From IMG/VR virus record IMGVR_UViG_2791355477_000007: 64,000 bases of DNA; one strand, 5' to 3'. This document shows, piece by piece, positions 1,465 to 21,508 of the stretch. The notes beneath the pieces were generated by a model. It made no database searches. It was not told the DNA's origin and saw only the letters and a program-made list of their open reading frames with translations. The position numbers and the translations under genes were made by a program. Positions within the stretch are counted from its first letter, which is position 1. Each line of letters begins with the position of its first letter. Source of the stretch: a virus (taxonomy: Duplodnaviria > Heunggongvirae > Uroviricota > Caudoviricetes).

Positions 1465-2556
1465 TTACTTAGCAAAGAATTTTGTGTAATGTTCTAAGCC
1501 AATTACGTTTTTGCGTTTTACTGATTCTAACTTAGTAGTACCAGAAGTTGTTGCGTATCCAATGTGATTGTAATCTTTTACGAATACTGCATGAATCCAT
1601 TTAGCGAAATCTTCATGTGAACAATTATCTTGCATTGCTTGTTTTGCAACGAAGATTAATGTTATAGATTTTGAAGCACCAAATGATTTTTTAACATGCT
1701 TTTCATCCATAAATTTGAATGATTCATTTAGATAGTTTGTAAGTTCTTTTAATTCATGAATGTCTTCTGTTTTGAAGGCATCTTGATTAAGGAACCCATC
1801 AATTGTTTTGCTATCTAAAGCAGTGTTATTTTTGGTTTTTAAAACACATAATGCTTTTAATAACATATCTGAATGATTATCATTTTTAAGACCACTCGCA
1901 CTAAATCCCGCTTGTGTAAATTCTAACTCCTTCATTTCCGCAATAGCATGAAGTAATTCATAAGACATCATAGCTTTACGGATTTGTGATGGTTTTAATG
2001 CTTGACCATTGTTCCATCTTTTAAATAGGTCAGCCTTTTTAGAATCATCTAAATCCTCGTAACTCTTAATATCCAGAATTAAAGCCATGATACGGTTTTG
2101 ATATTGTTCTGGTAAATCTTTAAAGAACATGCCACTAACGTCCATCTTCACTTCTTCACCTTCACTATCAAAACACTGTACAAATGAATCTTTAAGAGCG
2201 TAACGATTTCGAACATAGTCACGGATTGTTGTCAATCTTTGTTTTCCATCTAATACATTTCTGAATTTTTTCTTGCTTTTACGAATTGTTTGCGTCTTAA
2301 TTTCACCAATTGAAACTTCTTCTAAGATTGAAACAATTAGTAAAGATTTCTTTTCAACAGTCCAAACAGCATTACGTTGGATTGGGTCATTAAATAAGAA
2401 AACTGTTTGACGCTCCATAAATTGTGCAACTGACATTTCATCTTTTGTTGCATCGAAGCAAACAAAGTCAACTTTCATATCAGATGTACATTTGATAACA
2501 CGAACTTCCTTCTTAGTTTCTGTACCTTGTTCAATAATTGTTGTTGTGTTTGTCAT
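1465..2556 (-). CDS. DUF262 (ParB-like nuclease domain) protein
   Basis: 363 aa; N-terminal region with ...NAVW...LDGKQRLTT motif resembling the DGQQR signature of DUF262/ParB-like NTPase-nuclease domains; terminator hairpin downstream at ~1425-1455. Confidence 0.55.
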   Translation of the reverse strand: MTNTTTIIEQGTETKKEVRVIKCTSDMKVDFVCFDATKDEMSVAQFMERQTVFLFNDPIQRNAVWTVEKKSLLIVSILEEVSIGEIKTQTIRKSKKKFRNVLDGKQRLTTIRDYVRNRYALKDSFVQCFDSEGEEVKMDVSGMFFKDLPEQYQNRIMALILDIKSYEDLDDSKKADLFKRWNNGQALKPSQIRKAMMSYELLHAIAEMKELEFTQAGFSASGLKNDNHSDMLLKALCVLKTKNNTALDSKTIDGFLNQDAFKTEDIHELKELTNYLNESFKFMDEKHVKKSFGASKSITLIFVAKQAMQDNCSHEDFAKWIHAVFVKDYNHIGYATTSGTTKLESVKRKNVIGLEHYTKFFAK

Positions 2557-2792: not shown

Positions 2793-3305
2793 ATGAAGGT
2801 GTATCATGTTTCTTTAGATAATAAGAAAACGAATGTATTTGCTCCAAGAGTTCCAAAGGACGAAATGCGATTGGCAGAAGAAGATAGTACCAGTGCCCGT
2901 TTTTGTGTCTCGACGACTATTGAAGGGTGTTTATCTGCGGTCCCTTGGGGTGGAGAATCATTAAGTTTACATGATAATAAAGTGATTACGGTTTATGAGT
3001 TTGATACAAATGATTTAGTGAATCAAGAGAATTTAATTGCTCCTTCGACACTATATCAAAAGGGTTTTGTTCCTGATGCGATGTATACGAGTGAACATTG
3101 GATTGTAAATGAATCTATACAGCCTAAAAATGTTTTTTGTATTGCAATAGATTCATATGAGGAAATAGTAGTTCCAGATGTTCCGTATGAAGATAGTTTG
3201 GTTTTAGAAACAGGTCTTGTAACGTTAGATGAGGTTTGGCAAGGAGATTTTGTCATGATTGAAAATATAAAATATCAACTATGTAAAGAAAAGAATGTAG
3301 CATAA
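2793..3305 (+). CDS. hypothetical protein (170 aa); paralog of N-terminal half of 12085..12819
   Basis: MKVYHVSLD..FAPRVP..CVSTTIEGCLSAVPWGG aligns with MSIFYHISMD..FVPRIP..CVSRTIDDCLSAIPSGG of the 12085 ORF; preceded by AGGTATTTT box. Confidence 0.5.
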   Translation: MKVYHVSLDNKKTNVFAPRVPKDEMRLAEEDSTSARFCVSTTIEGCLSAVPWGGESLSLHDNKVITVYEFDTNDLVNQENLIAPSTLYQKGFVPDAMYTSEHWIVNESIQPKNVFCIAIDSYEEIVVPDVPYEDSLVLETGLVTLDEVWQGDFVMIENIKYQLCKEKNVA

Positions 3306-4201: not shown

Positions 4202-4585
4202 GTGCCAAATGAAAATATGATACTTGTAATTTTTTTCATTGGAATACCGATGTTTTCTCTATTGTTTTGCTTATTCCCGATTATAACGATAGTAGTAGCT
4301 TTGGGAATTTGTCTGCTATTTTCTATATGGTGTACGATTACAGATTCTTATATGGAAGTTAGTGATGTGAAAGAATCCATATCTAATAGATTAGACATAT
4401 CAACGGGCGAAATTCTCTTTGATTTAAACAAAAAGAACGCTACTTATTTGAGACCTGGAAACTATAGCGTGTTTACTTCAAAAGGAGAATTTATTCTGGA
4501 GTTAGGAATTGAGTATAACAACTTCTATTGGATTGAATTAAGCCAAGTATCGGATGTTAATTTCATAGATGAATTAAACATATGA
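4202..4585 (+). CDS. small membrane protein, paralog family member (type A)
   Basis: 2 N-terminal TM helices; C-terminal VFTSKGEF...ELSQVSDVNFIDEL motif shared across array; GTG start with AAGGAGAG RBS. Confidence 0.55.
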   Translation: MPNENMILVIFFIGIPMFSLLFCLFPIITIVVALGICLLFSIWCTITDSYMEVSDVKESISNRLDISTGEILFDLNKKNATYLRPGNYSVFTSKGEFILELGIEYNNFYWIELSQVSDVNFIDELNI

Positions 4586-4602
4586 GATAGGAGGGATAGG
4601 TA

Positions 4603-4983
4603 ATGGATGAAGAAGGAATTATAGGTTGTTTTGGTGTCTTAGCAATTTTAGGAGCATTATTCTACTGTTTCCCCATTATTATGGCTGTTATTACATTCAC
4701 GATTATAATAATTGGTGTTTGGACGGTTCACTCTGATTCTAAAGATAATAGAAAAAAGTTTCTTACTGATTTGCAATCTGAAATACCTCAGAAGCTTAGA
4801 ATTACAAAAGATGAAGTAATTTATGATTTCGGAGAAAAAGGTGAATCTTCATGGAAATACGAAGACTTTCGAATTTTTACTTCCAGAGGAGAATTCATTG
4901 TAAAGATTAAAGATGTAGATAAGAAAGATATTGAGTTAGAGCAAGTATCTGATGTTGATTTCATGAAGGAGTCGAAACAATAA
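4603..4983 (+). CDS. small membrane protein, paralog family (type A)
   Basis: TM N-term; FRIFTSRGEFIVKI...ELEQVSDVDFMKE. Confidence 0.6.
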   Translation: MDEEGIIGCFGVLAILGALFYCFPIIMAVITFTIIIIGVWTVHSDSKDNRKKFLTDLQSEIPQKLRITKDEVIYDFGEKGESSWKYEDFRIFTSRGEFIVKIKDVDKKDIELEQVSDVDFMKESKQ

Positions 4984-5357
4984 TGATAGCAGAAATTTTA
5001 ATGGTCTTTGGGCTCATAGTTGGGTTGATTATAGCTATTTCTCGTTTATCTCCTATAATTGGAATTATTTTCTTAATCATGCTATTGATTGGCATTGTCG
5101 TATTTAGTCATTACATACGAAAAGAAGAGCTTACAGAGTTAAAAGAAGTAATAGCTCATAACCTGTCAATTTCACAGAAAGAGATATTATTTGATGTTGA
5201 ACGAACGAGAAAATCTTTCTTAGGATGGAGAAAACTATATGTTTTTACATCAAAGGGAGAATTTGAAGTCAATATACATAGAGATAATGGTGAATGGGTA
5301 GGTATAGATTTGATTTCTATTTCAAATGTCGATTATATGAAAGAATTAAACTACTAA
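4983..5357 (+). CDS. small membrane protein, paralog family (type A)
   Basis: start overlaps previous stop (ATGA); YVFTSKGEFEV...ISNVDYMKEL. Confidence 0.6.
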   Translation: MIAEILMVFGLIVGLIIAISRLSPIIGIIFLIMLLIGIVVFSHYIRKEELTELKEVIAHNLSISQKEILFDVERTRKSFLGWRKLYVFTSKGEFEVNIHRDNGEWVGIDLISISNVDYMKELNY

Positions 5358-5478: not shown

Positions 5479-5988
5479 ATGGATAAAAAGAATTATGAAA
5501 GTTTGTTCATGATGGGTCTGACAATTATGTCGATTATGGCTATAGTGGAAGAGAATTTTCAACGATATTTTATTATTTTATTGATATATATATGCTTCAT
5601 TACTATGATTCATTTCTTTCTTAATTATAAAAAATCTAAAACAAAAAATATGGTAGTCATTGAAGAATGCGTGAGAGAGAGTTTTACAAAATTAATAAAT
5701 GACTCCTATTATAAACTTTACGAAAATCAGCACCCTAAAGAAGTGGAAGAGAAATTCTTAGAGACAGTTAGAGCAATGAACATTATCATTCATCGAAACG
5801 GAGCATTGAATAAAAGCTCTTTCAAAGATAGATGCTTAAAAGGTTTTTACGAAGAAGACATCCGATTCTTTACAATGTTTGGAGAGTATACCTGTACTGT
5901 GAATGTATTAAAAGATGGATTAGGTGAACTGAAGAACCTCGACCAAATTTCTGATTTGGATTTTGATAAAGCGTTGAAAGGGATTTAA
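5479..5988 (+). CDS. small membrane protein, paralog family (divergent type B)
   Basis: TM N-term; ...CLKGFYEEDIRFFTMFGEYTCTVNV...ISDLDFDKAL. Confidence 0.5.
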   Translation: MDKKNYESLFMMGLTIMSIMAIVEENFQRYFIILLIYICFITMIHFFLNYKKSKTKNMVVIEECVRESFTKLINDSYYKLYENQHPKEVEEKFLETVRAMNIIIHRNGALNKSSFKDRCLKGFYEEDIRFFTMFGEYTCTVNVLKDGLGELKNLDQISDLDFDKALKGI

Positions 5989-6072
5989 AAATTGTAATAT
6001 TTATTTGTTTTTAGAATTTTTTAGAATTTATTCCTTAAAGTAGGAAGAAGGTTATGTAAAGGAGTTGAGGAT

Positions 6073-6531
6073 ATGTCTGATAACAATACTTCATCTATAC
6101 TATTCACGATGATAATTCCGCCTTTAGGGTTCATATTATTCTTGCTAAGACCTTCGTTGACAAAACTATATACAAACCATTTTACTGCATTTATTTTGGG
6201 GTTTATTGGTGTTGTCATGTGTATTATAGGAATCTCGCTTTATATTTACAAAATAGAATACAACCGTATTAAAAACAAAGATTTTGATAGAGTAAAAAAA
6301 ACTCTAACAAGGTACCTCAAAAAGAGTTTTGTATTAGTGGAAGAAGAAAAAGGATTAACAAAAAAGGATATCAATAAAAGATGTTTTACATCTTATCAAA
6401 CAAAATTCACTGTTTTTGTTCCCGATGGAGAACTCTTATGCACTGTAAACGTGAGTGAATATGACGTTGATGTTATGAAAGTAAAACGAGTATCAAAAAT
6501 GAATTTAAATAAAGAACTTTATGCGAGTTAA
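6073..6531 (+). CDS. small membrane protein, paralog family (type B)
   Basis: EYNRIKNKDFDRVKK..L.KRCF.SYQ..F.VFVPDGELLCTVNV signature. Confidence 0.6.
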   Translation: MSDNNTSSILFTMIIPPLGFILFLLRPSLTKLYTNHFTAFILGFIGVVMCIIGISLYIYKIEYNRIKNKDFDRVKKTLTRYLKKSFVLVEEEKGLTKKDINKRCFTSYQTKFTVFVPDGELLCTVNVSEYDVDVMKVKRVSKMNLNKELYAS

Positions 6532-6534
6532 TAT

Positions 6535-7032
6535 ATGCAGGAAATGGGTGAGAAGGCAATGTTTGATGCAGAGGTAGTAGAGAATCCATTTATTATTATA
6601 TTATTTATCGTGCTTGTTGGACTGTGTAAAGTCTTCTATGCCACAAATGCTTTCGCTTTCTATATTGTGATTACAGCTCTTCTTAGCATTATTTTAGGCA
6701 CGATATATTTTATTTACAAAAAAGAATACAACCGAATAAAACAAAGGGATATGGATAGAGTAAAAGCTACTTTGACGAGATTTCTCAGAACAAAGTATTC
6801 AACAATGTCCCAGATTAATAGTTTTTTTGTATTAATGGAAGAAGAGAAATATGTATCAAAAATAACTATTTTAAAAAGATGCTTTAAATCGTATCAACTA
6901 ACTTTAACAACGTTTATTCCAAGTGGAGAGCTTTTATGTTCTGTTACAGTGAGTGAAAACAAAGTTGATATTGATGAAGTAAGAGAAATTTCAATGTTAG
7001 ATTTAAAGAAAGAGCTGTATGTGAATAAGTAA
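6535..7032 (+). CDS. small membrane protein, paralog family (type B)
   Basis: EYNRIKQRDMDRVKA...KRCFKSYQL...PSGELLCSVTV. Confidence 0.6.
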   Translation: MQEMGEKAMFDAEVVENPFIIILFIVLVGLCKVFYATNAFAFYIVITALLSIILGTIYFIYKKEYNRIKQRDMDRVKATLTRFLRTKYSTMSQINSFFVLMEEEKYVSKITILKRCFKSYQLTLTTFIPSGELLCSVTVSENKVDIDEVREISMLDLKKELYVNK

Positions 7033-7058
7033 ATAGAGTATGTAAGGAAGTGATTTGG

Positions 7059-7553
7059 ATGTTTGATGATGAATCTAACGATTTATTAGTTTGTATAATG
7101 TTTGCACCAGTAGTTATTACGATTATAGCGTTTCTAATTATCTCTTTTGTACATATGTTTGTTAATTTCTATAATTCAAATATATTTTACTTTATAACAG
7201 GGGTTTCTGCTTTTGTTAGCTTAGTTGCAGGAAATGTGTATTGTCTTTACAAGAAAGAATATAACCGAATTAAAACAAATGATTTTAATCGAATAAAAGA
7301 AGAAATAAAAAAACATATTCGTAGTTGCTATGTAGAAAATACTTTTTGTTTAGTTGAAGAAAAAGAAGTTTCAAAAAGAGAAATTTTGAAAAGATGTTTT
7401 CGTACATACGAATTGTCGATTCATGTTTTTGCTCATCATGGAGAATTGGTTTATCAAACAAAGGTAAATAAAGATGAGGTATGGTTCAAAAACATAACGC
7501 AAGTTTCAAACGTGAATTTTGCAAAAGAATTTTATAAGAAATCAAAAATATAG
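7059..7553 (+). CDS. small membrane protein, paralog family (type B)
   Basis: EYNRIKTNDFNRIKE...KRCFRTYEL...HGELVYQTKV; ATG 7059 preferred (RBS AAGGAAG 7 nt upstream) over GTG 7050. Confidence 0.55.
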   Translation: MFDDESNDLLVCIMFAPVVITIIAFLIISFVHMFVNFYNSNIFYFITGVSAFVSLVAGNVYCLYKKEYNRIKTNDFNRIKEEIKKHIRSCYVENTFCLVEEKEVSKREILKRCFRTYELSIHVFAHHGELVYQTKVNKDEVWFKNITQVSNVNFAKEFYKKSKI

Positions 7554-7626
7554 GAATAGATACTTTATCAATTCCTATATAAATCCAAAAATATTTAAAG
7601 TTTAATAGTTTAAGGGAGGGCTTAAA

Positions 7627-8121
7627 ATGTGTGATAAGGAGTCGGAAGAACACTCTAATTCAAATTTATTCCTGTATGCACTTCTGCCTTTAATAGCGTT
7701 CTTGCTTCCATTTCTTAAGCCAGAGCTGAGTTCCGAGAACTTTATAAAATTCGTCAATACACTAATAGGTGTTCTTGTATTTGTGGTTGTATGTATCTCT
7801 ATAACCTTCTTGAGAAGAGAATATAACCGCATTAAAAGGAAAGATTTTGTTCGAATCAAGGAACAAGTTACACAGCATGTAAAAGAGCACTACTACTTAG
7901 GAATGCAAGACAGTTTTATTTTAATTGATAAGGAGAAAAATCTAACAAGAAAAGAAATCTTAAAAAGATGTTTTTCTACATATAAGGTAAAGATTCCTGT
8001 ATTTGCTCCAAGTGGAGAGTTTCTATATGAAGTGAAGGTTAATGAACAAGATGTAGAAATAATAAACTCTAAACGGGTATCACATGTTAGCTATGGTAGA
8101 GAGCTATATGTATATAAATAA
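7627..8121 (+). CDS. small membrane protein, paralog family (type B)
   Basis: EYNRIKRKDFVRIKE...KRCFSTYKV...PSGEFLYEVKV; RBS GGGAGGG. Confidence 0.6.
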   Translation: MCDKESEEHSNSNLFLYALLPLIAFLLPFLKPELSSENFIKFVNTLIGVLVFVVVCISITFLRREYNRIKRKDFVRIKEQVTQHVKEHYYLGMQDSFILIDKEKNLTRKEILKRCFSTYKVKIPVFAPSGEFLYEVKVNEQDVEIINSKRVSHVSYGRELYVYK

Positions 8122-8190
8122 ATGGGTATGTTAAAAATAAATATTTTTTTATATTAATAAAAAGATATGAAGAAGGAAGGAGATGTAGAA

Positions 8191-8688
8191 ATGTTTCATA
8201 AAGATGACCCAGAAGTAGTTTTAATGAAATATACAATTTTTTTGGGAATAGGATTAATCGTTTTCAACATCATAGTATGGGGTGTTTTATGGGTTACGAA
8301 TCTTGTTATGAATAATCTAACTGTAGTTATGTATGGAATTACAGGGATTGTTTTTATCGGAGTAGGTATTTCGATGTGTTTTATCAGGAAAGAATATGAC
8401 CGTATTACAAAATATGATTTTGACAGAGTTAAACGCTTATTAAGTCAGTATCTTAATGAAGAATATTTTAATGGCCAGAATAATAGTTTTATTTTAGTAG
8501 AAGAGGAAAAGGGAGTAACAAAGAAGGATTTTTTGAAGAGATGCTTTGCCACCTATCATATAGATTTAAAGGTGTTTGTTCCAGATGGAGAACTTTTATG
8601 TACTGTAAAGGTATATAAAGAAGGAATCCGAGTAAAAAATGTTAAGCGTCTTTCTCATATGAATTATAGAAAAGAATTTACGAAATAA
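8191..8688 (+). CDS. small membrane protein, paralog family (type B)
   Basis: EYDRITKYDFDRVKR...KRCFATYHI...PDGELLCTVKV; ATG 8191 has RBS GAAGGAAGGAG, upstream ATG 8167 lacks one. Confidence 0.55.
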   Translation: MFHKDDPEVVLMKYTIFLGIGLIVFNIIVWGVLWVTNLVMNNLTVVMYGITGIVFIGVGISMCFIRKEYDRITKYDFDRVKRLLSQYLNEEYFNGQNNSFILVEEEKGVTKKDFLKRCFATYHIDLKVFVPDGELLCTVKVYKEGIRVKNVKRLSHMNYRKEFTK

Positions 8689-9816: not shown

Positions 9817-10194
9817 ATGTATAGAAAAGAATTTATTTGTAGTGTAATAGGTTTTTTGTTTGCTATAATTGGCTCTATTTTGAACATGAATATCTTTTCT
9901 GGTGGTGTTCTTTTTATTTCATTATTAGGGGTTATATATATTTATAAAAAAAAGCTAAAAGGAGAGTCCATCATAGCTGATAGAGTAGTGAAAGCTCGTA
10001 TTTATGAAAAGTTTTATTCTCCTATATATGCTCCTGAAGGAAAAACAGTCCTATTCGAAAAATCGTTAGAAAATACATATCGAATTTTTACAAAAAAAGG
10101 GGAGTATGTACTCACTATACATTCTTCGGCACAAGGAATTGGCTATGAGTATAAGAAAGTATCAGATGTAGATTATTTCAAAGAAATTTCGTGA
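9817..10194 (+). CDS. small membrane protein, paralog family (type A)
   Basis: YRIFTKKGEYVLTI...KKVSDVDYFKEIS. Confidence 0.6.
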   Translation: MYRKEFICSVIGFLFAIIGSILNMNIFSGGVLFISLLGVIYIYKKKLKGESIIADRVVKARIYEKFYSPIYAPEGKTVLFEKSLENTYRIFTKKGEYVLTIHSSAQGIGYEYKKVSDVDYFKEIS

Positions 10195-10226
10195 TGGAAG
10201 CAAAATAATAAAGGGGTGAAAAAAGG

Positions 10227-10613
10227 ATGAGCAAGGCTAAGTATCTATTGGTAGGTTTAATTTTTGTTTTTGGAATATATATATACCCATACGTTGATGA
10301 GCTTGGTGTTTTAATCGGTGTTGCAGTTTTTGTATATTTTATTTTGTATGATTTAAAAACATTTATTGAAAAGATAGATGATAAGAACAAAGATATCGGA
10401 TTGAGGGAATCACTTCATATAGTCTTTTCTGCTCCTAAATATGCTCCTGAAGGAAAAAAGGTCATTATTGAATTTGTTAAAAAAGATGAGTATCGAGTTT
10501 ATACAAAAAAAGGAGATTACTCCATTGTTATTGAGCGAGGGGAAGAAGATGCAATACTGAATATGAAAAAGGAAAAATTATCAGACGTAGATTTCTTCAA
10601 AGAAGTATTTTGA
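10227..10613 (+). CDS. small membrane protein, paralog family (type A)
   Basis: PKYAPEGKKVII...YRVYTKKGDYSIVI...KLSDVDFFKEVF. Confidence 0.6.
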   Translation: MSKAKYLLVGLIFVFGIYIYPYVDELGVLIGVAVFVYFILYDLKTFIEKIDDKNKDIGLRESLHIVFSAPKYAPEGKKVIIEFVKKDEYRVYTKKGDYSIVIERGEEDAILNMKKEKLSDVDFFKEVF

Positions 10614-10634
10614 TTTTATTAAGAAAACTATGTT

Positions 10635-11027
10635 ATGAAGGGACTGATAAAGGTGAAGTATCTACTATTAGGAATTTTTATCTTTTCAATTTATAGATTT
10701 CCATCTTTCGATAATTTCAATATCTTAATTGGCTCATTTTTGTTTGTTGTTTTTATTGTATATGATGTTGTCAATATGAAGTTAAAAAGAGAAGAACTAA
10801 ATGAGGATGAGCGATTAAGAAAGATGATTTATAGAAATTTTCCTGCTCCTGAGTTTGCACCAGAAGGGAAACAGGTAATTATTGACCGTTTAACATCAGA
10901 TGAGTACCAAGTATATACAACAAAAGGAGCCTATTCTTTTATTGCTGTGAGAGGACCATTTGATTTAATTGTTGATATAAAGGAAGAAAAGCTGTCAGAC
11001 ATAGATTTTTCCAAAGTAATAGCTTGA
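10635..11027 (+). CDS. small membrane protein, paralog family (type A)
   Basis: PEFAPEGKQVII...YQVYTTKGAYSF...KLSDIDFSKVIA. Confidence 0.6.
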   Translation: MKGLIKVKYLLLGIFIFSIYRFPSFDNFNILIGSFLFVVFIVYDVVNMKLKREELNEDERLRKMIYRNFPAPEFAPEGKQVIIDRLTSDEYQVYTTKGAYSFIAVRGPFDLIVDIKEEKLSDIDFSKVIA

Positions 11028-11840: not shown

Positions 11841-12084
11841 GAAGATAACTTTAGACTTCTTGTTATTACAAAAACGTTCGCATTATTATGAACAGCAATT
11901 TGTTATGTGAAAAACTTGTATGTTATTTTAAAATATTTTCTACATGGTTTATCCTATTTATTTTTTACAGAAAAACTATATGTTGTATACGAAATATAAT
12001 AAAAAAACGCTCCTGGCATAAAATACTATGTTATTACAAATCAGGTATTTTATGAATTTATTTAAAAAGGGGAGCGTTTTTATT

Positions 12085-12819
12085 ATGTCTATTTTTTATC
12101 ACATTTCAATGGATTTACAGCATTCAGGAGAGTTTGTACCAAGAATTCCATCTTGTCGTCATCAAGACAAAGAGGACGATGTGACAAACCGCATATGTGT
12201 GAGTAGAACGATTGATGATTGTCTTTCAGCTATACCAAGCGGAGGGGCACATTTAGAGGAGTTAAACATTGAACAAAGAGGATATTATAAAGTATTTAAA
12301 ATTGATACAGAAAAATTAGGTATCGAGGATTCAGATATTGTTTCATCGGATGTTTTATATCAAGAAGATTTAGTAAGAGATGCTGAAGTGACAAATGAGC
12401 ATTGGATTTTAAAAGGATTTCAGGTAGCTAAAGAGGATTCTTATATAATAAAGCTGATTGCTTGGGAAGAGTCTTCTAAAGATATTGTGCCAGAATTTAT
12501 TTATCGAATGGCAGAAGAACAGTATGGAGGAGATTATGTTAAGGCATACACTGACCATTTCAACGGCTATATGCCTTGCTCTACGTTTATAGTCGATGCA
12601 GGTTATGTAAAGGAATTTGTAAATGCAGGGATGACTTTGAGTTTTTATTTTGATACAGAGGAAGAGAAGGAGTATTTACTGTCTAAGTTTCAATTAGATA
12701 AAAGAATACATATCTCATATCAAGACATGGATACGATATCTATTTGCATAAAAGAAGATATGTCATGTGAAGAGTTATTTACTCAACACCTTCAATTCTT
12801 AAAGAATAATTTATTATAG
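12085..12819 (+). CDS. hypothetical protein; N-terminal half paralogous to 2793..3305
   Basis: internal ATG 12085 preferred (RBS GGGGAG, AGGTATTTT box 35 nt upstream); alignment with 170-aa protein. Confidence 0.5.
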   Translation: MSIFYHISMDLQHSGEFVPRIPSCRHQDKEDDVTNRICVSRTIDDCLSAIPSGGAHLEELNIEQRGYYKVFKIDTEKLGIEDSDIVSSDVLYQEDLVRDAEVTNEHWILKGFQVAKEDSYIIKLIAWEESSKDIVPEFIYRMAEEQYGGDYVKAYTDHFNGYMPCSTFIVDAGYVKEFVNAGMTLSFYFDTEEEKEYLLSKFQLDKRIHISYQDMDTISICIKEDMSCEELFTQHLQFLKNNLL

Positions 12820-12821
12820 GA

Positions 12822-13217
12822 GTGTTAGAAATGAAACTGCAAAAACCACTTAAAACAGTTAAAGTATGTATTCTATTATTAACTTGTTCATCTTTTTTGT
12901 TCGGTTGTGAGCATACAGTTAGAACAGAAGAAAATGTGATAGGACAAGTAGTAGATAGACAAATAGAAAAAGTGAAAATTGAAGGCGACTGCACTCAGAT
13001 TCCGATTGGGGATACTGGTGTTTTTATGCCAATTTGTGATGATGATAAAGAAGAAGAGCATTTTAATGTAACAGTTCAAGCCCATGGAATTACTACAATT
13101 CTTAATGATAAATCAATGTTTGAGAGCAAAGAGAAAGAACTTCCTGTTATTTATATAAAAGAAGTAGGGGAAGAATCAAACAAAGTCTATGATGAGCGGT
13201 TAATATTACCTTATTAA
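12822..13217 (+). CDS. putative lipoprotein
   Basis: signal peptide with lipobox LFGC (…CSSFLFGCEH); start abuts previous stop. Confidence 0.55.
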   Translation: MLEMKLQKPLKTVKVCILLLTCSSFLFGCEHTVRTEENVIGQVVDRQIEKVKIEGDCTQIPIGDTGVFMPICDDDKEEEHFNVTVQAHGITTILNDKSMFESKEKELPVIYIKEVGEESNKVYDERLILPY

Positions 13218-13392
13218 TGAAGAGAGCGAGTGTAAACTTGCTCTCTTTTATTTTGTTATTACAAATAAATACTCTGTTAAAAGATAAGTAATGTATATAT
13301 ATAAATTATAAGAAGATGAATTGTACTTTTGAACAGTTCAAAGAGCAGTGGATTAAATACTCACTGCTCTTTGAATATTTAATTGATATGAC

Positions 13393-14763
13393 TTATACCT
13401 GAATTGGTACATCAATTTTAGCTCTTGCTACGCAAACCCCTTGTTTAACTATATAACATTCAACAAAGTGTTCACCGTTAAAAGATGTACATTCTTTAAG
13501 TGTTTCTGAATTGGTTTTAATAATTTGTCCTCTTACACAGTTTCTTTCTTTCGCTACATCCCCACGGTTTTTAACTTTCCAATACACATGATATGGTTTT
13601 GTAACGTAATTGTCTTTTATATAAAAATCCAATTGTTTGCTGATTGGTAAATGCAGACCTCTTTCTAACCAATCATTTAAAAAATAAGGTCGAAAACCAT
13701 CCTGTGTAATGCGACAGTCTAAAGATAAGTGGTACTGAATATTTACAGGGAACATATATTCAATAAATTCCTCAGACTCGTTGTATAGTCTACTCTCTGT
13801 AGAAGCATAAGATTTGCTTACAGCCGAATTTGTTTCTTTTTCTTGTTCTAATTGTTTTTCCCAATATTCATGATTAAAGAACTCTTGCCATGCTTTAATT
13901 GCTTGTTCGGGTGTACAACCTTCCTCAAACAAAACTTCCAACTTTCCTAAATAAGTTGTTAATCTTCTTTCTAATCTGTCCAACCGAACATCATCTTTTT
14001 GAATTAATTTAAGGCTTTGCTCTTCATCAGTGGGGTTATTTACCTCTTTATCTATGGTCAATCTATCTCTTACTGCAACTAATGTATGATAAAACATTTC
14101 ATCTATGCGTGTTTCAGCTTGAAAACATTCGTTGAGAAGTACGGATTGAACTAAACCACCAGGCATTTCCCATTTAGGTCTGGATTTACAAAACATTTTC
14201 AACAGTCTTGCTACAATACGAAGGTTATAATTCTTCTTTTTATTTTCATTATTAAACCACTTGGTAATACTTCTTGGGTCTCTTGGCCGCCATTCGCTTC
14301 CGCAATGTTCGTATTTATATTCACCATATTCGTCTTTATATCTTCGATAAATAGCAAAATCAATGTGATAGCCCTCTTCATAAACAATTCGTACACAGTT
14401 TGTTTTTGCTGTAGGTGGTTCTTTAAATTGTTTACATTTCTTTTTCAGTGCGGTTACTACCATATTCTTTGTTGCGGTTGTTCCTTCAGGTAAGTTGTCC
14501 TTATCAAAAATGATAGCAACATCAATATCGTAATCTTTACTTTCATTTTGCACAACTGTAGACATAGCTACGCTTCCCTGAACAACGGTATCTACAATTG
14601 AATAATTTGTTTTCTTTTCCTCGTTGTATTCTTTTAATCCATCTTTTAATCTATCAAGATTCGATGTTCTAAGCTTAAATAATCGATTTTTTTCTTTACC
14701 TTGTAACACAACATGTTTTTTGTAAAACGTCATAAGCTTGTTATTTAAGTCGTACATAAGCAT
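13393..14763 (-). CDS. CBASS cGAS/DncV-like nucleotidyltransferase (CD-NTase)
   Basis: pol-beta NTase signature QGSVAMSTVVQNESKDYDIDVAII (GS...DxD) and downstream HIDFAIY third acidic residue; 456 aa; co-oriented and 6 nt from a multi-TM effector-like gene. Confidence 0.7.
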   Translation of the reverse strand: MLMYDLNNKLMTFYKKHVVLQGKEKNRLFKLRTSNLDRLKDGLKEYNEEKKTNYSIVDTVVQGSVAMSTVVQNESKDYDIDVAIIFDKDNLPEGTTATKNMVVTALKKKCKQFKEPPTAKTNCVRIVYEEGYHIDFAIYRRYKDEYGEYKYEHCGSEWRPRDPRSITKWFNNENKKKNYNLRIVARLLKMFCKSRPKWEMPGGLVQSVLLNECFQAETRIDEMFYHTLVAVRDRLTIDKEVNNPTDEEQSLKLIQKDDVRLDRLERRLTTYLGKLEVLFEEGCTPEQAIKAWQEFFNHEYWEKQLEQEKETNSAVSKSYASTESRLYNESEEFIEYMFPVNIQYHLSLDCRITQDGFRPYFLNDWLERGLHLPISKQLDFYIKDNYVTKPYHVYWKVKNRGDVAKERNCVRGQIIKTNSETLKECTSFNGEHFVECYIVKQGVCVARAKIDVPIQV

Positions 14764-14769
14764 CCTCCA

Positions 14770-15861
14770 TTAAGCTTGAATGTATTTACCTTTCTCGTCA
14801 CCGTTAAGAACAATGCCCCAAGGATATTTTTTTGGGGTATGCATATCAAAGAAGTAGCAGATAACTTGTGCCATTCTATAATTTTCAATTCTTTTTCCTA
14901 TTTCTAATGCTAAACAACTTTGACTGGAACAAACCAAATGAACTTTTGTTGCTCCAATTTCTTCAATCGTATCCATGATAGTTTTTACATAATCTTTAAG
15001 TTGATTTGTATAGCGTATTTTATTATCATCTGGTGTATCTACTGCCAGTTTCACAACATCTACGCCTTCAAACTGAGTTAATTGAGCATCCTTAATTTCT
15101 TTTGTGACAGAAATAGATAATACCACTTCTATTGCATTTGGATTTAAATGATTCAAATCTGTTTTAACCTCTAAAGCAGAGTATCCATTACCTTCTTTTA
15201 ACTCGTAGAATTTTTCAGTTTCTATTTTGTCGAACTCGAAATAATGGTCTATTTTTTCTCTTTGTAAATACGTTCCTGCTAATGCTACAAACGGGATAGG
15301 AGCGATACCTGTGTAACCTCTTTTAAACTCTTTACTTTCATCTTTAAAGGAAGTTATTTTTTCTTTCAGCATATTAGCGATATCTTTTGTAGTAGTAGGA
15401 TTTATACCTTTTTTATAGGTTTGAATGAAATCAATTTCTCTTTCTTTGAATTCAAATGTTCCTAAACCTAAATCACGATTATGTCCTTCAATTCTTTTAT
15501 CAAAATAACCGTTGATGTTTAAAATGAATATTCTATTTTTAATATATCTCCAGAAGTAAATTCCTGCTACGAATAATAGTGCACCGACAATAAGTTGAAG
15601 AACATTAGGTTCGGACATTTCTTTTGTAATAGCGATGGATTCTTTCGCTGTTTCGCTATTTTTTAAGATTGATAGGGTTTGGAGTGGTTTGTCCCAGGGA
15701 GAACCAAAAGCACTGACAACTAAAGAAAGACCCGTTGTAATTAACAAGGAGGATAAGCTTTGTTCTTTATTTTGGCTTGAAAACTGTTTGATTACAAACA
15801 AACCTCCAATACCAATAATAGCAATAACTAAAATGATAATAAAAATAGCCAATATTTTCAC
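14770..15861 (-). CDS. CBASS effector candidate: 3-TM N-terminus + ~250-aa C-terminal sensor-like domain (TM-SAVED-like?)
   Basis: three N-terminal hydrophobic helices then soluble domain; operonic with CD-NTase; SAVED assignment is inference from architecture only. Confidence 0.5.
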   Translation of the reverse strand: MKILAIFIIILVIAIIGIGGLFVIKQFSSQNKEQSLSSLLITTGLSLVVSAFGSPWDKPLQTLSILKNSETAKESIAITKEMSEPNVLQLIVGALLFVAGIYFWRYIKNRIFILNINGYFDKRIEGHNRDLGLGTFEFKEREIDFIQTYKKGINPTTTKDIANMLKEKITSFKDESKEFKRGYTGIAPIPFVALAGTYLQREKIDHYFEFDKIETEKFYELKEGNGYSALEVKTDLNHLNPNAIEVVLSISVTKEIKDAQLTQFEGVDVVKLAVDTPDDNKIRYTNQLKDYVKTIMDTIEEIGATKVHLVCSSQSCLALEIGKRIENYRMAQVICYFFDMHTPKKYPWGIVLNGDEKGKYIQA

Positions 15862-16126
15862 GCTCCTTAACCGTATTTGAATAGGAAATAAAAACCGTCA
15901 TCTTCTTATCATAAGGAGAATTGACTATATTTTGCAATTGTTTAACCTCTAAAAATTAAAATAAAAGGATATAATATAGTTTTTTTTAATAGAAGACGAA
16001 CTATGAAGGGAAATATGTATGCTGACAGAGATTTTATTGAATGAATGAAGTATTGGAATAGTATAATCATAGGAATATAAAAAAACAGGTATTTAAATAA
16101 ATTTAATGTAAAAGGGGCTATTTAAA

Positions 16127-16897
16127 ATGAATTTAGATGGAATGAAAGAATTAATTAAACAAAGTGCAATGAAAAGAAAACAAATGTTTACAGAATTGAA
16201 GGAACCTTGGGAAGTTGTTACGTTGTATTACGGAACAACAAGTAAAAAATTGAATGATATTTTACAACATGGAATTACTCCTCAAAATGGTGTACCTTCA
16301 CATCCTGAGTTGGTTTATTTAACAACAAAATGGCATTATTGGTACGCTTTCCAGGAAAATAAAAAATCATTAATTGCAACTGTAGGAAAAGAACGATATG
16401 AATCAGAGTCTATTACTTCTCTTTGGAATGAAACAGGTGACTTTCCAATTTATATTTCTTTAGAAGTGCCAAAAGAAATATTGGTATTAGATGAAAATGT
16501 GGTTCATCAATTAGATATTAAAGAGAAAATTCAAAATGGCGATATTGAAAGCCCAGATGATATTTCGTTAGAGGATTGTTTAGAACATGGCATGGTAGCT
16601 TCGATTGATACGATTAAACCTTGGTATATAGATGAGGTTAACATTATTGGTAGTGAAGAATATAGGGATGATTTGTTAGATGGAGCATATGGAGAAGAAG
16701 CGAATCTTTGGTTTAAAGGATTTGGGATTGGCTCAATAACTGCTGATTCATTAAATTTATATGAGCAAGTAGCTTATGGTAATTTAGTGAAAGTTGTGGT
16801 GTTTTCTCCAATTATTGAAGATAATCCTAAAATAAAAAGTATTTATATTAAAGACGAGAAATTACAAATTGACTTTGATTGGAATTGGTTTAAGTGA
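16127..16897 (+). CDS. hypothetical protein with Tpt1/KptA-like HGT NAD-binding motif (ART-fold candidate); paralog of 17071..17850
   Basis: LYYGTTSKKLNDILQHGITPQNG...ELVYLTT resembles KptA [29 protein letters not shown]; ~60% identical to next gene. Confidence 0.4.
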   Translation: MNLDGMKELIKQSAMKRKQMFTELKEPWEVVTLYYGTTSKKLNDILQHGITPQNGVPSHPELVYLTTKWHYWYAFQENKKSLIATVGKERYESESITSLWNETGDFPIYISLEVPKEILVLDENVVHQLDIKEKIQNGDIESPDDISLEDCLEHGMVASIDTIKPWYIDEVNIIGSEEYRDDLLDGAYGEEANLWFKGFGIGSITADSLNLYEQVAYGNLVKVVVFSPIIEDNPKIKSIYIKDEKLQIDFDWNWFK

Positions 16898-17070
16898 ATT
16901 AGCATAATAAATGCATAAATAAAAATAAAACTACCTAATTAATTTGATAATAGGTAGTTTTATTTTGTGTAATTATGATTAGAATGAAGAATATAGATGA
17001 TGTAGTATAATGTTATAAACATAACAAAACAGGTATTTTTAAAAATGCGATATAAAAGGAGCTATTTATA

Positions 17071-17850
17071 ATGAATTTAGAAGAAATGAAAGAACGAATC
17101 AAACAAAATGCGGTAAAAAAGAAACAGTCATTTACCGAAGTAGAAGAGCCCTGGGACACGATTACTCTATATCACGGAACGACAACTAAAAGATTAAATG
17201 AGATTTTAAAACATGGAATTACATCTCGAAATCAAAATGAAATAAATAATTTTACTCATGTGCCTTCAAATCCTGAGTTGGTGTATTTATCAATAAAATG
17301 GCATTATTGGTACGCTTTTCATGCGAACAAGGAGTCACTCATTAATCAAGTAGGGAAAGAACGTTACGAATCTGAATCTATCACTTCACTTTGGAACGAG
17401 ACTGGAGATTTTCCAGTTTATATTGTTTGTGAAGTACCTAAAGAATTATTGGTACTGGATGAAGATGTAGTCTATCAGTGGGGGATTAAAACGAAAATTA
17501 AGAATGGAGAAATAGAAGGACCAGATGATATCTCAATAGAAGAATGCTTACAACAAGGAACAATCGCTTCACTTGATACGATTATTCCTTTATATATGAA
17601 TGAGATTATTATTATTGGTAGTGAAGAATATAGAGAAGAACTATTAGGTGGGATGTATGGTGTAGAGGCAGGAAAATGGTTCCATGGATTTGGAATTGGT
17701 TCTCTTACTGCTGATTCATTAAGCGTACATGAAATCATGAAGTATAGTAAATTTCTTCATATACTGCCTGTTGAACCTATTCCAGAGCAAAATAAGTCTA
17801 TTAAACGGATTTATATTGAAGAGGAAGAATTACAGGTTGAATTTGAATGA
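17071..17850 (+). CDS. hypothetical protein with Tpt1/KptA-like HGT motif; paralog of 16127..16897
   Basis: LYHGTTTKRLNEILKHGITSRN...ELVYLSI; own AAACAGGTATTT box and RBS. Confidence 0.4.
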   Translation: MNLEEMKERIKQNAVKKKQSFTEVEEPWDTITLYHGTTTKRLNEILKHGITSRNQNEINNFTHVPSNPELVYLSIKWHYWYAFHANKESLINQVGKERYESESITSLWNETGDFPVYIVCEVPKELLVLDEDVVYQWGIKTKIKNGEIEGPDDISIEECLQQGTIASLDTIIPLYMNEIIIIGSEEYREELLGGMYGVEAGKWFHGFGIGSLTADSLSVHEIMKYSKFLHILPVEPIPEQNKSIKRIYIEEEELQVEFE

Positions 17851-18056
17851 TAGAGAATCTGAATTAGGTATCCTTTCACAAGGTTCTACGATATAATAAA
17901 TATATATCTGTTCTATATTTTTTGTGGAGCATCCATCATTATTTGATGGGTGTTTTTTTATAAGCTCGAACCATTTTGGTCTATCTATATAGATGAAATA
18001 TGGATAAAATGAAATTGTAGAGCTAACAACCTTTTATAAAAAGAATATTAATAGGG

Positions 18057-18725
18057 GTAAGTGTTATTAAATTTAGGTATCATCATACTCTAATTATATA
18101 TGAACTTCATGTTATTAGAACATGTTTGCAAATTCGTCAAACAGAAGTTAATTACTTATAAAGAACTAATTGTTATTAAAAGTAGGGAGTCTTGTCTTTA
18201 TCTATTATATAAAACTATATGTTATTAAAAGAACGGTTCTTTCTTAATTAATTTATATTGAACTATATGTTGTTAAAAGAATAATAAATTGAGGAGAAAG
18301 ATTTGGATGAATATTAGGCAGTTAAAAGAAAAAGAAGTTACAATGAATGCTTTGAATGGATTTGCTAATCGGACTAAAAAAGCAATAAAGCATTTGAAAA
18401 AGGAAAATGCCCCAAATTTAGTTGTGGAGACTCTTGTAGACCAAATAGAGATTGCAAAGAGATTAGCAGGAGAATTAAAAAATGAAATCTCAGAAGACAT
18501 CAAAGAAAGAGCACTCCAGAGAATTAATTACGGTGATATAACTGAAGTGAAGTTTGTTCCAGAAAATTAAAGTGTTTGAAAAATATAAAGAACTCAATGT
18601 TATTGAAACCTGCCATTTAAATGGAAGTAGTAGTTGGTAATTTATCGTTCGAACTATTTGTTATTAGCATTATAAGGACGCCTTTATTTAGCAAAAACTT
18701 ATAAAAAACTATATGTTATCTATTA
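18057..18725 (+). repeat. array A of degenerate 19-bp repeats (rAACTwwwTGTTATTrrAA), 8 units, interrupted by a small ORF
   Basis: units at ~18057,18102,18162,18211,18260,18589,18651,18706; spacing 45-62 bp; preceded by AAGCTCGAACCATTTTGGTCTATCTATATA at 17963. Confidence 0.7.
18305..18570 (+). CDS. hypothetical small protein embedded in repeat array A
   Basis: RBS GAGGAG 8 nt before ATG 18305; helical, Lys/Glu-rich. Confidence 0.35.
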
Positions 18726-18943
18726 TTTATTATGAACAATGGCTATTGTAGTCATTGTTTTTATTTTGTTTTTTATTCTCTTATGTATCCGATATAACTT
18801 GCTTATAATATATAGATTTAATGAAAAAGGAGTGATAATTTCACAATGTAAAAAAGTTATGTTTTTAAAAAGGATTTTTATTGTTCTGTATCAATTATAT
18901 GTATGTAGTTGATTTGCTTTTTATTTTAAAGAGGTGATATTGT

Positions 18944-19726
18944 ATGGTTACAGGAATTGGTATTTTTACAGGGTTATTTAAAGTTGGTAGTTTTATAGCA
19001 AAGTTTAAATGGATTGTTCCGATATGTTTCTTAGTATATTCATTGTATTTGAGTTGGTTTAAGACATCAGTTTATGAAGAATTAACTCATAATTTGCGAA
19101 AAACTTGGTATTTTTTATTGATTTTTGCGATGGGAATTCATTTTAATGCGGTAGGTTTTAATGCAAAAGATTGGCAGGACTATCTATTGTATGTTTCTAT
19201 TTTTGTATTTGTAGATTTGGCAATTTTTCAAACACCACGAATATCAAAAATATGGGGAACCGAATTAACAGCCATTGAGAAAAATAATAAAGATTTAACG
19301 AAAACGATTGAGATGGGCAAAGCAAGAGACGCAAATTTCTCAGCAGTAATTAGAAGTATGAATCCTAATTACTTTAAGCAGGTGGATATGAATACTTCAG
19401 CTAAATACTTGAATTCTTTAGGTAGCATTATGAATTTGTATGCTAATTTATGCGATTATAAAATTGATGTTTATCAAAACAATAACCCGCAAGTATTGAT
19501 GCAACAATTAACGACTCAATATGGAATAAAGATTTCACAAGAGCAGTATGATGAGTTGAATGTTGAAAAAGGGGTGTTGCAACCAGAGACGAATATGGTA
19601 ATGGTAGCAACATCTATTGTCGAAAACATTGTAATCGTAGTAACAAGTCAAAAAAGTATAATGCTTGATAATGACATATCGAATGTATATGACCTTGCTA
19701 TTATTCATAGTTGGTTAAAAAAATAA
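18944..19726 (+). CDS. hypothetical membrane protein (260 aa)
   Basis: 4-5 N-terminal TM helices, soluble C-terminal half; RBS AGAGGTGA. Confidence 0.5.
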   Translation: MVTGIGIFTGLFKVGSFIAKFKWIVPICFLVYSLYLSWFKTSVYEELTHNLRKTWYFLLIFAMGIHFNAVGFNAKDWQDYLLYVSIFVFVDLAIFQTPRISKIWGTELTAIEKNNKDLTKTIEMGKARDANFSAVIRSMNPNYFKQVDMNTSAKYLNSLGSIMNLYANLCDYKIDVYQNNNPQVLMQQLTTQYGIKISQEQYDELNVEKGVLQPETNMVMVATSIVENIVIVVTSQKSIMLDNDISNVYDLAIIHSWLKK

Positions 19727-19767
19727 CTATATGATAGAATAATGGTAAAGGAAGTGGAGGAGATATT

Positions 19768-19947
19768 ATGAACAAAATGATGGTTATTGAAAACGAAAAA
19801 CAAATAAGAGATTCAAAAACAGAAAATATTCCCTTCTTTTTAAGCAAGGACCCAAACTGTGAGGTTGTTCAAATCCCAACGGCTTTACATACTCAACAAT
19901 TATTAACTGAAAATAAACGTTTGTTTAGCAAACTTAGAAGACGATAA
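19768..19947 (+). CDS. hypothetical small protein (59 aa, below ORF-track cutoff)
   Basis: RBS GGAGGAG; followed by hairpin AAAGCATGGttattCCATGCTTTTTT terminator 19947-19972. Confidence 0.3.
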   Translation: MNKMMVIENEKQIRDSKTENIPFFLSKDPNCEVVQIPTALHTQQLLTENKRLFSKLRRR

Positions 19948-20021
19948 AAGCATGGTTATTCCATGCTTTTTTCTTTAACATATTTTCGATTATCTAAATG
20001 AATAAAGGGAGCTGATTAAAT

Positions 20022-20315
20022 ATGGATTCACGGAAAGATTATCAATTCACTGAGAATGAATTCTTTTTCTTATCTAAAGTAAAACAGCATCCAGTGTTGT
20101 CACTTTTATTAAAAGAAAAACCACAAGTATTAATTCAAATACTTGAGAAATCTGTTCAGGAAGAGATATTTGATAAATTACCTGGGTTCAATTATCCTGA
20201 TTATATTCAAAAAGAGAAATTGGAAGTAATGGATGTACCTATGGCTAAATACACAAGAGAATTAATAGAAAAACAAGAAAAGGCTATTGATAAGCTAAAA
20301 GATGGCAATAGATGA
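20022..20315 (+). CDS. hypothetical protein (97 aa)
   Basis: RBS AAAGGGAG; no recognisable motif. Confidence 0.4.
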   Translation: MDSRKDYQFTENEFFFLSKVKQHPVLSLLLKEKPQVLIQILEKSVQEEIFDKLPGFNYPDYIQKEKLEVMDVPMAKYTRELIEKQEKAIDKLKDGNR

Positions 20316-20600
20316 AAAATTAATTTATATATGATATAGAAGGTGATAGGATGGAGAAAAAGTTTAAAAGTAATCTTTTGAAGGAGAAGCCTGTGACGTA
20401 TGCACCACACCTTAAAAATTCCCCTTCAAAAACGAAAGAATTAATTGATGAGATAAAAGTTGAAATATTAAAGATGAAAAACAAATAGCAAAGGGGCTTT
20501 TACATGAGAAAAGAGCCTCTGAAAATTTGGGGGCTCGAACCGTTTTGCTATATACAAATTTATTCTATTTCTGTAATCTAAAAGAAAGATGAAATTGTAT

Positions 20601-20840
20601 AAAGCTAAATGTTATTATAAATGTCTAAGTAAATTTTATATTTAGAATGAACTTATTGTTATTAATACTATGTATAGAAACTGTTTACTTATCAATTTTC
20701 ATCGTTTAAAAACAACTAATTGTTATTGAAATATGCACGAGAGCACACTCTGATATCTCTTATGAAGAACTTATTGTTATTAGGATGTTCGTGATTCAGT
20801 TCCGTATTCAAAATTATAAAACTTAATGTTATGAACATAA
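20601..20840 (+). repeat. array B of degenerate 19-bp repeats, 5 units
   Basis: units at 20601,20649,20713,20766,20818; preceded by GGGGGCTCGAACCGTTTTGCTATATAC at 20529; last unit extends into palindrome GTTATGAACATAAC. Confidence 0.7.
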
Positions 20841-20953
20841 CTTCTTGCTAAGAGCAAGGAGTTTTCTTTTTTTTATAACCCAAACCACAAAAGTCTATAA
20901 TAAATAAATTTATAAAATAGGTATTCATTTGAATTTATTTAGGAGGATGTAAC

Positions 20954-21508
20954 GTGGAAATGGTGTCATATATTAGTCTTATTTTTATTCTAATATGCAA
21001 AGTGTTCTTTGCAAGTAAATGTATCGTGCTTATTCATGAATTAGGTCATGCATTTTTTGTTTTCATTACAGGTAATCAAATCACTGCTATTCAAATAGGA
21101 GGAGAGAAAAAACTCTTTACTATCGGTAAACTGCAATTTCTTATAGGAGCAGGAGGACGTTGTTATTTTGAAATTGCAGATGCAAATAAAAGGAAGTATT
21201 TAATGAAAAACATTATCTCTATGGGTGGTGTTTTATTTACATTCATTTTGACAATCGTTTTAGTCGGAACAGATTCTTTTGATTTTTATCATTTTGCAAA
21301 AGGGATGATAAAAGGAGATATTACTTTTATAGAGTGTTTGGTAATGTTTGGTTTCTTAGATTTAAGAAACATCATACCGAAAACGTTTATAAATAACGAG
21401 GTTGTATATCAAACAGACGGGCATAAAGTCATACAAGACACAAAGTCTTACTTCAAACAGAGAAGGATTAGAAGACTACAAAAGAATATTATGAACTTAA
21501 TAAAATGA
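20954..21508 (+). CDS. small polytopic membrane protein with HExxH (HELGH) motif, metalloprotease-like; paralog of 39461..39946
   Basis: IHELGHAFFV in first TM region; 4 TM; AGGTATTC box and AGGAGG RBS upstream. Confidence 0.45.
   Translation: MEMVSYISLIFILICKVFFASKCIVLIHELGHAFFVFITGNQITAIQIGGEKKLFTIGKLQFLIGAGGRCYFEIADANKRKYLMKNIISMGGVLFTFILTIVLVGTDSFDFYHFAKGMIKGDITFIECLVMFGFLDLRNIIPKTFINNEVVYQTDGHKVIQDTKSYFKQRRIRRLQKNIMNLIK

Follow-up and report, generated by a model that had tools for sequence, protein, structure and literature searches.

Two neighbouring genes of a Bacillus plasmid adjoin an antiphage defence system, and the question they raise is whether they belong to that system and, if they do not, what their products might do. 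The genes, referred to here as A and B, lie in a 64,000-nucleotide stretch of DNA (IMG/VR record IMGVR_UViG_2791355477_000007), the whole of which is called the window, and positions 13000-21000 of it are 100% identical to the Bacillus thuringiensis Bt407 plasmid BTB_502p (NC_018878.1, circular, 501,911 bp). Paralog A (256 aa, WP_001046937) is an open reading frame (ORF) at 16127-16897 and paralog B (259 aa, WP_001047224) one at 17071-17850, both on the plus strand and both labelled in RefSeq as hypothetical protein. An alignment of the two over 249 aa shows 63% identity (E 8e-118), and the duplication unit reaches from about 75 nt 5' of each ATG to near the stop codon. ADP-ribosyltransferase (ART)-fold enzymes are recurrent weapons in the conflicts of bacteria, phages and plasmids, as exemplified by DarT, CmdT, Alt/Mod, AcrIF11 and the Rhs toxins. 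A previous interpretation of the DNA letters without database searches, the sequence-only reading, had likened a stretch of A and B to an enzyme of this fold and had proposed the duplicated pair, which lies beside a cyclic-oligonucleotide-based antiphage signalling system (CBASS), as a candidate defence or toxin-immunity component.

The best explanation as a whole, which we favour with slightly better than even confidence, is that A and B are independently transcribed tandem paralogs with a divergent ART fold of the His-Tyr type, that B is an enzyme and A a non-catalytic copy, and that the pair is an accessory of the plasmid. The structural intuition of the sequence-only reading is right, and its functional context is wrong.

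Fold of the paralogs and their nearest relatives

AlphaFold2, run with the family alignment as input, returned a model of B with a predicted local distance difference test (pLDDT) score of 89.9 and a predicted template modelling (pTM) score of 0.87, and a model of A with the same topology (pLDDT 90.0, pTM 0.87). The split beta-sheet ART fold is present in the models of the pair and spans the first ~125-185 residues of the ~260-aa proteins, and at the N-terminus of both a single helix (residues 3-20) leads directly into the ART strand b1. In a Foldseek search of the PDB the top 50 matches were all ARTs, with weak scores (best E 1.8e-3, template modelling score (TM) ~0.3). Since AlphaFold2 and Foldseek agree and the scores are weak, the ART fold is sound and the kinship to every solved ART is distant; that A and B have this fold is held with high confidence. 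The sequence-only reading had named the lack of an ART/Tpt1-like fold as the outcome that would speak against it, and both structure prediction and Foldseek found such a fold, with Tpt1/KptA and DarT as the nearest relatives in sequence.

The stretch that had been compared to RNA 2'-phosphotransferase KptA/Tpt1 resembles it above chance. The Pfam model PTS_2-RNA (PF01885) gives B 19.5 bits (E 0.0011) and A 12.3 bits (E 0.17) at a cut-off of 26 bits, the NCBIfam RNA 2'-phosphotransferase reaches E 0.004, with equivalogs at 12-17 bits versus cut-offs of 231-279, and PHROGs yields weak matches only, to phrog_5470 (RNA 2'-phosphotransferase, E 0.006) and phrog_11974 (unknown function). A phmmer search of the PDB sequences with the single sequence of B found nothing, and significance was reached there only with profiles of 41 and 93 sequences: as the alignment was deepened, the match of the family profile to Tpt1 went from E 0.08 to 0.002 (41 sequences) and ~1e-5 (93 sequences), and the 93-sequence profile also matched DarT1 with E 3.3e-5 over profile positions 9-86. 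When this profile was compared by hhalign to a KptA alignment built from E. coli kptA and 24 relatives, it gave a probability of 96.3% (E 1.7e-9) over 57 columns that comprise strands b1-b3. In this alignment H35 of B corresponds to KptA H105, Y72 to KptA H129 (VHLS) and b3 to the KptA PVIL/VVL strand, and KptA residues 99-155 alone are covered, which bears out the proposed absence of the KptA N-terminal lobe. The motif that had been written out for both proteins exists as a stretch but is not contiguous, as HGIT and ELVYL are separated by 10 residues in A and by 18 in B.

Likeness to Tpt1/KptA (PF01885) is limited to its C-terminal lobe, which binds nicotinamide adenine dinucleotide (NAD+). 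Tpt1/KptA has an N-terminal winged-helix RNA lobe with the Arg-His-Arg of the catalytic tetrad, whereas A and B have neither, and the second His of the enzyme (KptA H129) is an invariant Tyr in the A/B family. Furthermore, the family has a ~40-residue helical insertion after b2 and a second insertion bearing an Asp-Glu-Asp (D-E-D) sequence, and A and B carry an extra ~75-residue C-terminal module, are acidic and score below the family cut-off. When compared to DarT of DarTG, they have no Pfam DarT match at E <= 1, their profile match to DarT1 is distant, and with isoelectric points (pI) of 4.6 and 4.9 and a net charge of about -19 they are acidic rather than DNA-binding in character; no DarG-type macro-domain antitoxin was found among the flanking ORFs scanned or annotated beside them. 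Arr and the PARP/diphtheria-toxin H-Y-E/D enzymes show no significant sequence match to A and B, and here the acidic residue is placed by sequence only. Pertussis toxin S1, cholera toxin and TreX belong to the R-S-E type, whose Arg, Ser-x-Ser and Glu-x-Glu are absent from the family, which has His and Tyr; in addition, A and B lack the B subunits, the Rhs context and the secretion signal of these toxins, and a signal peptide search in both proteins found none, in keeping with their description as cytoplasmic. A and B belong to a new, uncharacterised ART clade that is nearest to Tpt1 and DarT and a member of neither.

The family is covered by no model of Pfam, NCBIfam, PHROG functions or PADLOC. 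No more than 17 close clusters came out of a word-indexed search, each with an identity of 49% or higher. An exhaustive profile search extended this to 356 relatives (E <= 1e-3) of two kinds: full-length proteins with 250-336 aa, and a more numerous set with 190-280 aa that starts directly with 'MKLYHGT'. Ten relatives were scanned and none falls in a Pfam family, and weak Tpt1 and PARP matches recur over the same stretch. The close family has been seen in Bacillales only (Bacillaceae and Paenibacillaceae), where it sits on megaplasmids or among many small unannotated genes, and it is rare; a scan of 185,579 species-representative genomes with two narrow peptide patterns confirmed three loci, all in Bacillales. 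No relatives were found in a pattern scan of viral contigs, and tblastn with B and with P0067, a distant member, gave no match in 50,697 phage records. Foldseek against BFVD matched seven proteins of phage G with low scores (TM 0.35-0.40). For this phage at least 10 ARTs are reported (PMC9503650), and because of this the matches were read as generic ART-fold likeness and membership of phage G proteins in the family was rejected. A literature search found no paper that mentions WP_001046937 or WP_001047224.

Residue conservation in the family and what each copy retains

Residues are numbered as in paralog B, and conservation was counted over 93 diverse relatives. G36, I45, G49, Y72 and D130 are invariant (93/93), while H35 (92/93), R53 (88/93), S66 (90/93), E131 (90/93) and D132 (90/93) are kept in at least 90% of the relatives, as are T37, P52, L73, S159, G163 and I176. 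Strand b1 bears the NAD+-contacting His of an H-G-[ST] motif, strand b2 bears Y72 in the nicotinamide-stacking position, and D130-E131-D132 comes after strand b3 in the sequence. Judged by conservation, the H, R, S, Y and D-E-D residues have the pattern of a putative catalytic centre, with a His-Tyr pair as in the H-Y-E/D ARTs, and an acidic residue of D-E-D is the candidate for the third catalytic position. E121 of the 'EVP' strand was ruled out as the catalytic Glu, since this position varies in the wider family. The sequence-only reading had suggested a check of the His and of an acidic residue equivalent to the ART glutamate; H35 and D130 are conserved, and the equivalence of D-E-D to that glutamate is putative. 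The same reading took the catalytic Arg to be missing, which is doubtful: in the alignment R53 precedes KptA R125 by two columns and has a 13-residue insertion after it. R53 would be a candidate counterpart of KptA R125, an assignment that is unproven.

B retains H35 (as H35-G-T), R53, S66, Y72 and D130-E131-D132, and its sole difference is P52 to Ser. A carries the changes H35Y, R53Q and D132N and a 24-nt (8-residue) deletion just after position 53, which falls in a low-confidence loop of its model. The 'HGT' that had been attributed to both proteins is therefore present in B, with Tyr in place of His in A, and the loss of the conserved His, Arg and one Asp from A goes beyond what the sequence-only reading described. 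A is the sole sequence among the 93 without His at position 35; in its two orthologs, from related plasmids, this position holds Tyr or Phe, and position 53 holds Gln. The ratio of nonsynonymous to synonymous divergence (dN/dS) is 0.16-0.29 for A and 0.10-0.15 for B, which indicates purifying selection on both.

A is most plausibly a paralog that has been maintained without catalytic function, a putative pseudo-enzyme, and its residue changes make catalytic impairment likely. For B we predict an enzyme that uses NAD+ and has a His-Tyr-(Asp/Glu) centre, and catalytic activity of B is marginally the more probable state. Inactive ART paralogs are also represented by PARP13, PARP9 and the TASOR pseudo-PARP, which like A have kept the fold and replaced the NAD+-contacting His; in A two other conserved polar residues are replaced as well and purifying selection acts, and unlike A these proteins are eukaryotic and multidomain. 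No description of a bacterial tandem pair in which one ART paralog of this family is intact and the other degenerate was found in the literature searched.

A separate observation concerns the history of the genes. Among the same three plasmids (the window, L007 and L008), the synonymous divergence (dS) is ~0.15 for the A orthologs and 0.45-0.51 for the B orthologs, and the about threefold lower value of A suggests differing histories, through recombination, replacement or gene conversion.

The neighbouring CBASS and the proposed role of the pair

The CBASS consists of two genes on the strand opposite to A and B, 265 bp upstream: a CD-NTase (DncV-like (SMODS) nucleotidyltransferase with AGS_C, 13393-14763, minus strand, PADLOC cyclase E 2e-189) and a SAVED-2TM effector (SAVED with Saf_2TM, 14770-15861, minus strand). 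The sequence-only reading was correct in calling this system and its divergent orientation, and a functional tie of the pair to the CBASS is unsupported. That the pair is an accessory of the adjacent CBASS, such as a second effector, a cyclase regulator or a signal-modifying enzyme, would be in line with its direct position across the divergent intergenic region, which is kept in L008 and, with the cyclase alone, in L007. The order 'CBASS - A - B' is nevertheless found only in these syntenic B. cereus-group plasmids, and in L007 (B. cereus group sp. BfR-BA-01382) the SAVED-2TM gene has been cleanly deleted at position 6798 (window 14848-15865), so that an orphan CD-NTase stands beside both intact ART-like genes. 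The same CBASS (86% identity) is also carried by a 71-kb plasmid of B. toyonensis, where no A/B homolog lies near it, and the second CBASS of BTB_502p (nucleotidyltransferase and SAVED), just outside the window, is likewise without A/B-like genes; tblastn over the whole plasmid found family copies at two places only. At six other homolog loci (Bacillus sp. M6-12, two metagenomic contigs, Mesobacillus, P. polymyxa pSC2 and an Aneurinibacillus megaplasmid) there is one copy of the gene and no adjoining CBASS, and no PADLOC model matches A or B. A CBASS component would be expected to share location and orientation with a CD-NTase in unrelated genomes, and this was not found. Because the adjacency is limited by synteny, L007 has retained both genes and the B. 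toyonensis CBASS stands alone, the proximity is lineage-specific; A and B are in good likelihood independent of the CBASS, and a role as its accessory is very improbable. For annotation the lesson is that CBASS proximity is here a lineage-specific accident, with no sign of a new CBASS component.

Two further observations belong to these CBASS loci. Close to the CBASS of B. toyonensis lies a gene for a hypothetical protein of 256 aa, which was rejected as an A/B homolog because it is unrelated. A bacterial PARP gene (WGR, PARP_reg and PARP catalytic domains, E 2e-37; NC_018878.1 232182-236255, L013 5183-9256) adjoins the second CBASS of BTB_502p, ~1-5 kb past the left edge of the window.

In the favoured explanation, the fold of A and B would be placed in the His-Tyr branch of the ARTs, alongside Tpt1/KptA, DarT, Arr and PARP. 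B would bind NAD+ via H35 and Y72 and either move ADP-ribose to a target or hydrolyse NAD+, with a D-E-D acidic residue acting in the role of the ART catalytic Glu/Asp, while A would have lost catalysis and would persist as a non-catalytic partner, regulator or decoy. The target of B would more likely be a protein or a small molecule than a nucleic acid, because A and B are strongly acidic and lack the Tpt1 RNA lobe. The module may be an accessory or conflict gene that stands on its own on the plasmid, and not a CBASS component. Any specific target is improbable at best, and our guess for B is ADP-ribosylation of a protein or small molecule, or NADase activity, in mobile-element conflicts.

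B could instead be a Tpt1/KptA- or DarT-like nucleic-acid ART that caps phosphate ends or modifies bases, in RNA repair or as a toxin. Toxins of Tpt1/KptA type that act on nucleic-acid ends have been hypothesised only (PMC11833690). The sequence likeness described above points towards these enzymes; however, without the RNA lobe B has no Arg-His-Arg of the Tpt1 tetrad, it has Tyr for the second His, its pI is low and its Pfam score lies under the PF01885 cut-off, and the scanned neighbours of the pair include no RNA ligase, 2H, macro or DarG-like gene, all of which makes this function quite unlikely. The side-by-side position of B and its degenerate copy would also suit a toxin B with a cognate immunity protein or antitoxin A, acting through a heterodimer or through shielding of the target. 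This is unlikely, since the intact homologs in Bacillus sp. M6-12, Mesobacillus, Paenibacillus and the metagenomic contigs are singletons without an A-like gene and without a conserved neighbour, the separate promoters and the strong terminator between A and B differ from typical co-transcribed pairs, and tandem duplication is frequent in the region. An obligate co-transcribed unit, conserved wherever the toxin occurs as in type II toxin-antitoxin systems, was not found. Rather doubtful, finally, is the suggestion that neither copy is enzymatic and that both are ART-fold binders of NAD+/ADP-ribose (or another ligand) or scaffolds, with which the degenerate state of A agrees; the polar H, R, S, Y and D-E-D residues are near-invariant across relatives that are ~20-30% identical, which is typical of a catalytic centre, and the His is retained in 92/93.

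Several points weigh against the enzyme and pseudo-enzyme explanation that we favour. Every curated family model scores A and B under its threshold, the role of D-E-D at the third catalytic position is putative, and hhalign of the C-terminal half (124-190, 150-190) against the KptA profile gave no signal, for which reason a supposed likeness of 'GT[VI]A..IP.EYI' to KptA 'NGVWLT..VP..YI' was also dropped. A few full-length relatives besides A also lack the His, and the family may tolerate non-catalytic states. Across the homolog loci there is no conserved partner gene, whether a macro or other hydrolase or an immunity gene, the label 'conflict gene' is based on the flavour of the neighbourhood alone, and the literature searched has nothing on the family.

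One candidate partner gene encodes a DUF262/GmrSD_N protein (window 1465-2556, minus strand, 14.5 kb from the pair), and it is the sole other gene common to the window and the homolog loci L002-L004, which come from other genera. Its orthologs there are 62-69% identical (L002 8828-9946, L003 8857-9975, L004 10569-11750), and they adjoin the ART-like homolog in L002 and L003 and lie ~1.8 kb away from it in L004. It was rejected as a conserved partner, since it is missing from L005, L010 and L018. At two loci, P. polymyxa pSC2 (L005, 4552-9331) and the Aneurinibacillus plasmid (L006, 2867-16049), NAD-related genes stand within a few kb of the homolog, namely nadD, NAD synthase, NUDIX, isochorismatase-type and macro-domain genes. 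The Aneurinibacillus homolog is truncated (152 aa), and the context of these two loci, one of them with a truncated copy, is suggestive of a link to NAD+/ADP-ribose metabolism.

A member of the short 'MKLYHGT' subfamily was also found on an ENA metagenome contig (L015, 10001-10885), near genes for a SUKH/SMI1_KNR4 immunity-type protein, a STAND NTPase that carries TPR repeats and a protein with a guanylate-cyclase domain; judged by these genes, its neighbourhood appears to be of the conflict type.

A bolder form of the enzyme and pseudo-enzyme explanation, and a rather unlikely one, would make B the founding active member of a new ART family devoted to genetic conflicts of large Bacillales plasmids and mobile elements, with A as its dedicated non-catalytic regulator or decoy. 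B would then modify a protein of the host or of a rival element, or a small immune-signalling molecule. If this were true, A and B would be a bacterial enzyme/pseudo-enzyme ART pair, and the NAD-related genes of L005 and L006 would fit an NAD+ consumption whose cost is offset by the element. The intact and the residue-depleted copy side by side provide a ready-made natural experimental control, and if B is active, identification of the target would extend the His-Tyr branch of the ARTs by a new specificity and would show the use to which giant Bacillus plasmids put it.

Expression signals and the surrounding plasmid region

The proposal that each gene has its own promoter box and ribosome-binding site (RBS) fits the sequence. 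A -10-like box TAGTATAAT, a putative promoter element, lies 5' of A at 16059-16067 and is kept in both duplication units, where alignment places it 5' of B at 17003-17011. The RBS of A (AAAAGGGG, 16110-16117) stands 9 nt 5' of its ATG and is conserved in unit B, as AAAAGGAG at 17054-17061, again 9 nt 5' of the ATG, so that the box and an AAAAGG(G/A)G RBS are common to both units. All of these elements are on the plus strand. A generic sigma-70 promoter scan flagged neither box. Between A and B, a repeat search found a perfect 16-nt inverted repeat (100% complementary) with A-run and T-run flanks at 16922-16970 (plus strand), the RNA of which folds at -18.5 kcal/mol (z -5.9) and which resembles an intrinsic terminator hairpin, possibly a bidirectional one. 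RNA folding of 17848-17960 also gave a GC-containing hairpin followed by U7, terminator-like, 3' of B at 17929-17960 (plus strand), which a simple terminator scan did not report, and an Rfam scan of 15500-19000 matched no RNA family. Since each gene has its own box and RBS and a terminator-like element lies between them, A and B look like two monocistronic units that are separately transcribed.

This part of the plasmid is rich in tandem duplications: at least three more tandem paralog arrays lie within 12 kb upstream of the pair, and the duplication of A and B is unremarkable in it. These arrays consist of small ORFs that are all annotated as hypothetical: three copies of ~125 aa (window 4202-5357), five or six of ~150-170 aa (5479-8688) and three of ~125-130 aa (9817-11027), the last with a hydrophobic stretch at the N-terminus. 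A dispersed pair of hypothetical paralogs is formed by 2793-3305 and 12028-12819, and the 263-aa ORF at 12028-12819 matches phrog_10766 (E 2.5e-12).

Other genes of the window are of toxin, anti-restriction and mobile-element types. A SpoIISA-family toxin (18944-19726, plus strand, E 5.9e-33) is followed 3' by an annotated hypothetical ORF of 59 aa (19768-19947, plus strand), a possible SpoIISB-type antitoxin, and a WXG100-colicin/pyocin DNase toxin (40579-41883, minus strand) adjoins an annotated bacteriocin immunity gene. An ArdC-N and MPTase-PolyVal anti-restriction-like protein is encoded at 51866-52708 (minus strand), two PDDEXK_2 (Rpn-family) transposase-like genes lie at 37684-38523 and 50934-51788 (minus strand), and an SPFH protein is encoded at 264-1244 (plus strand).

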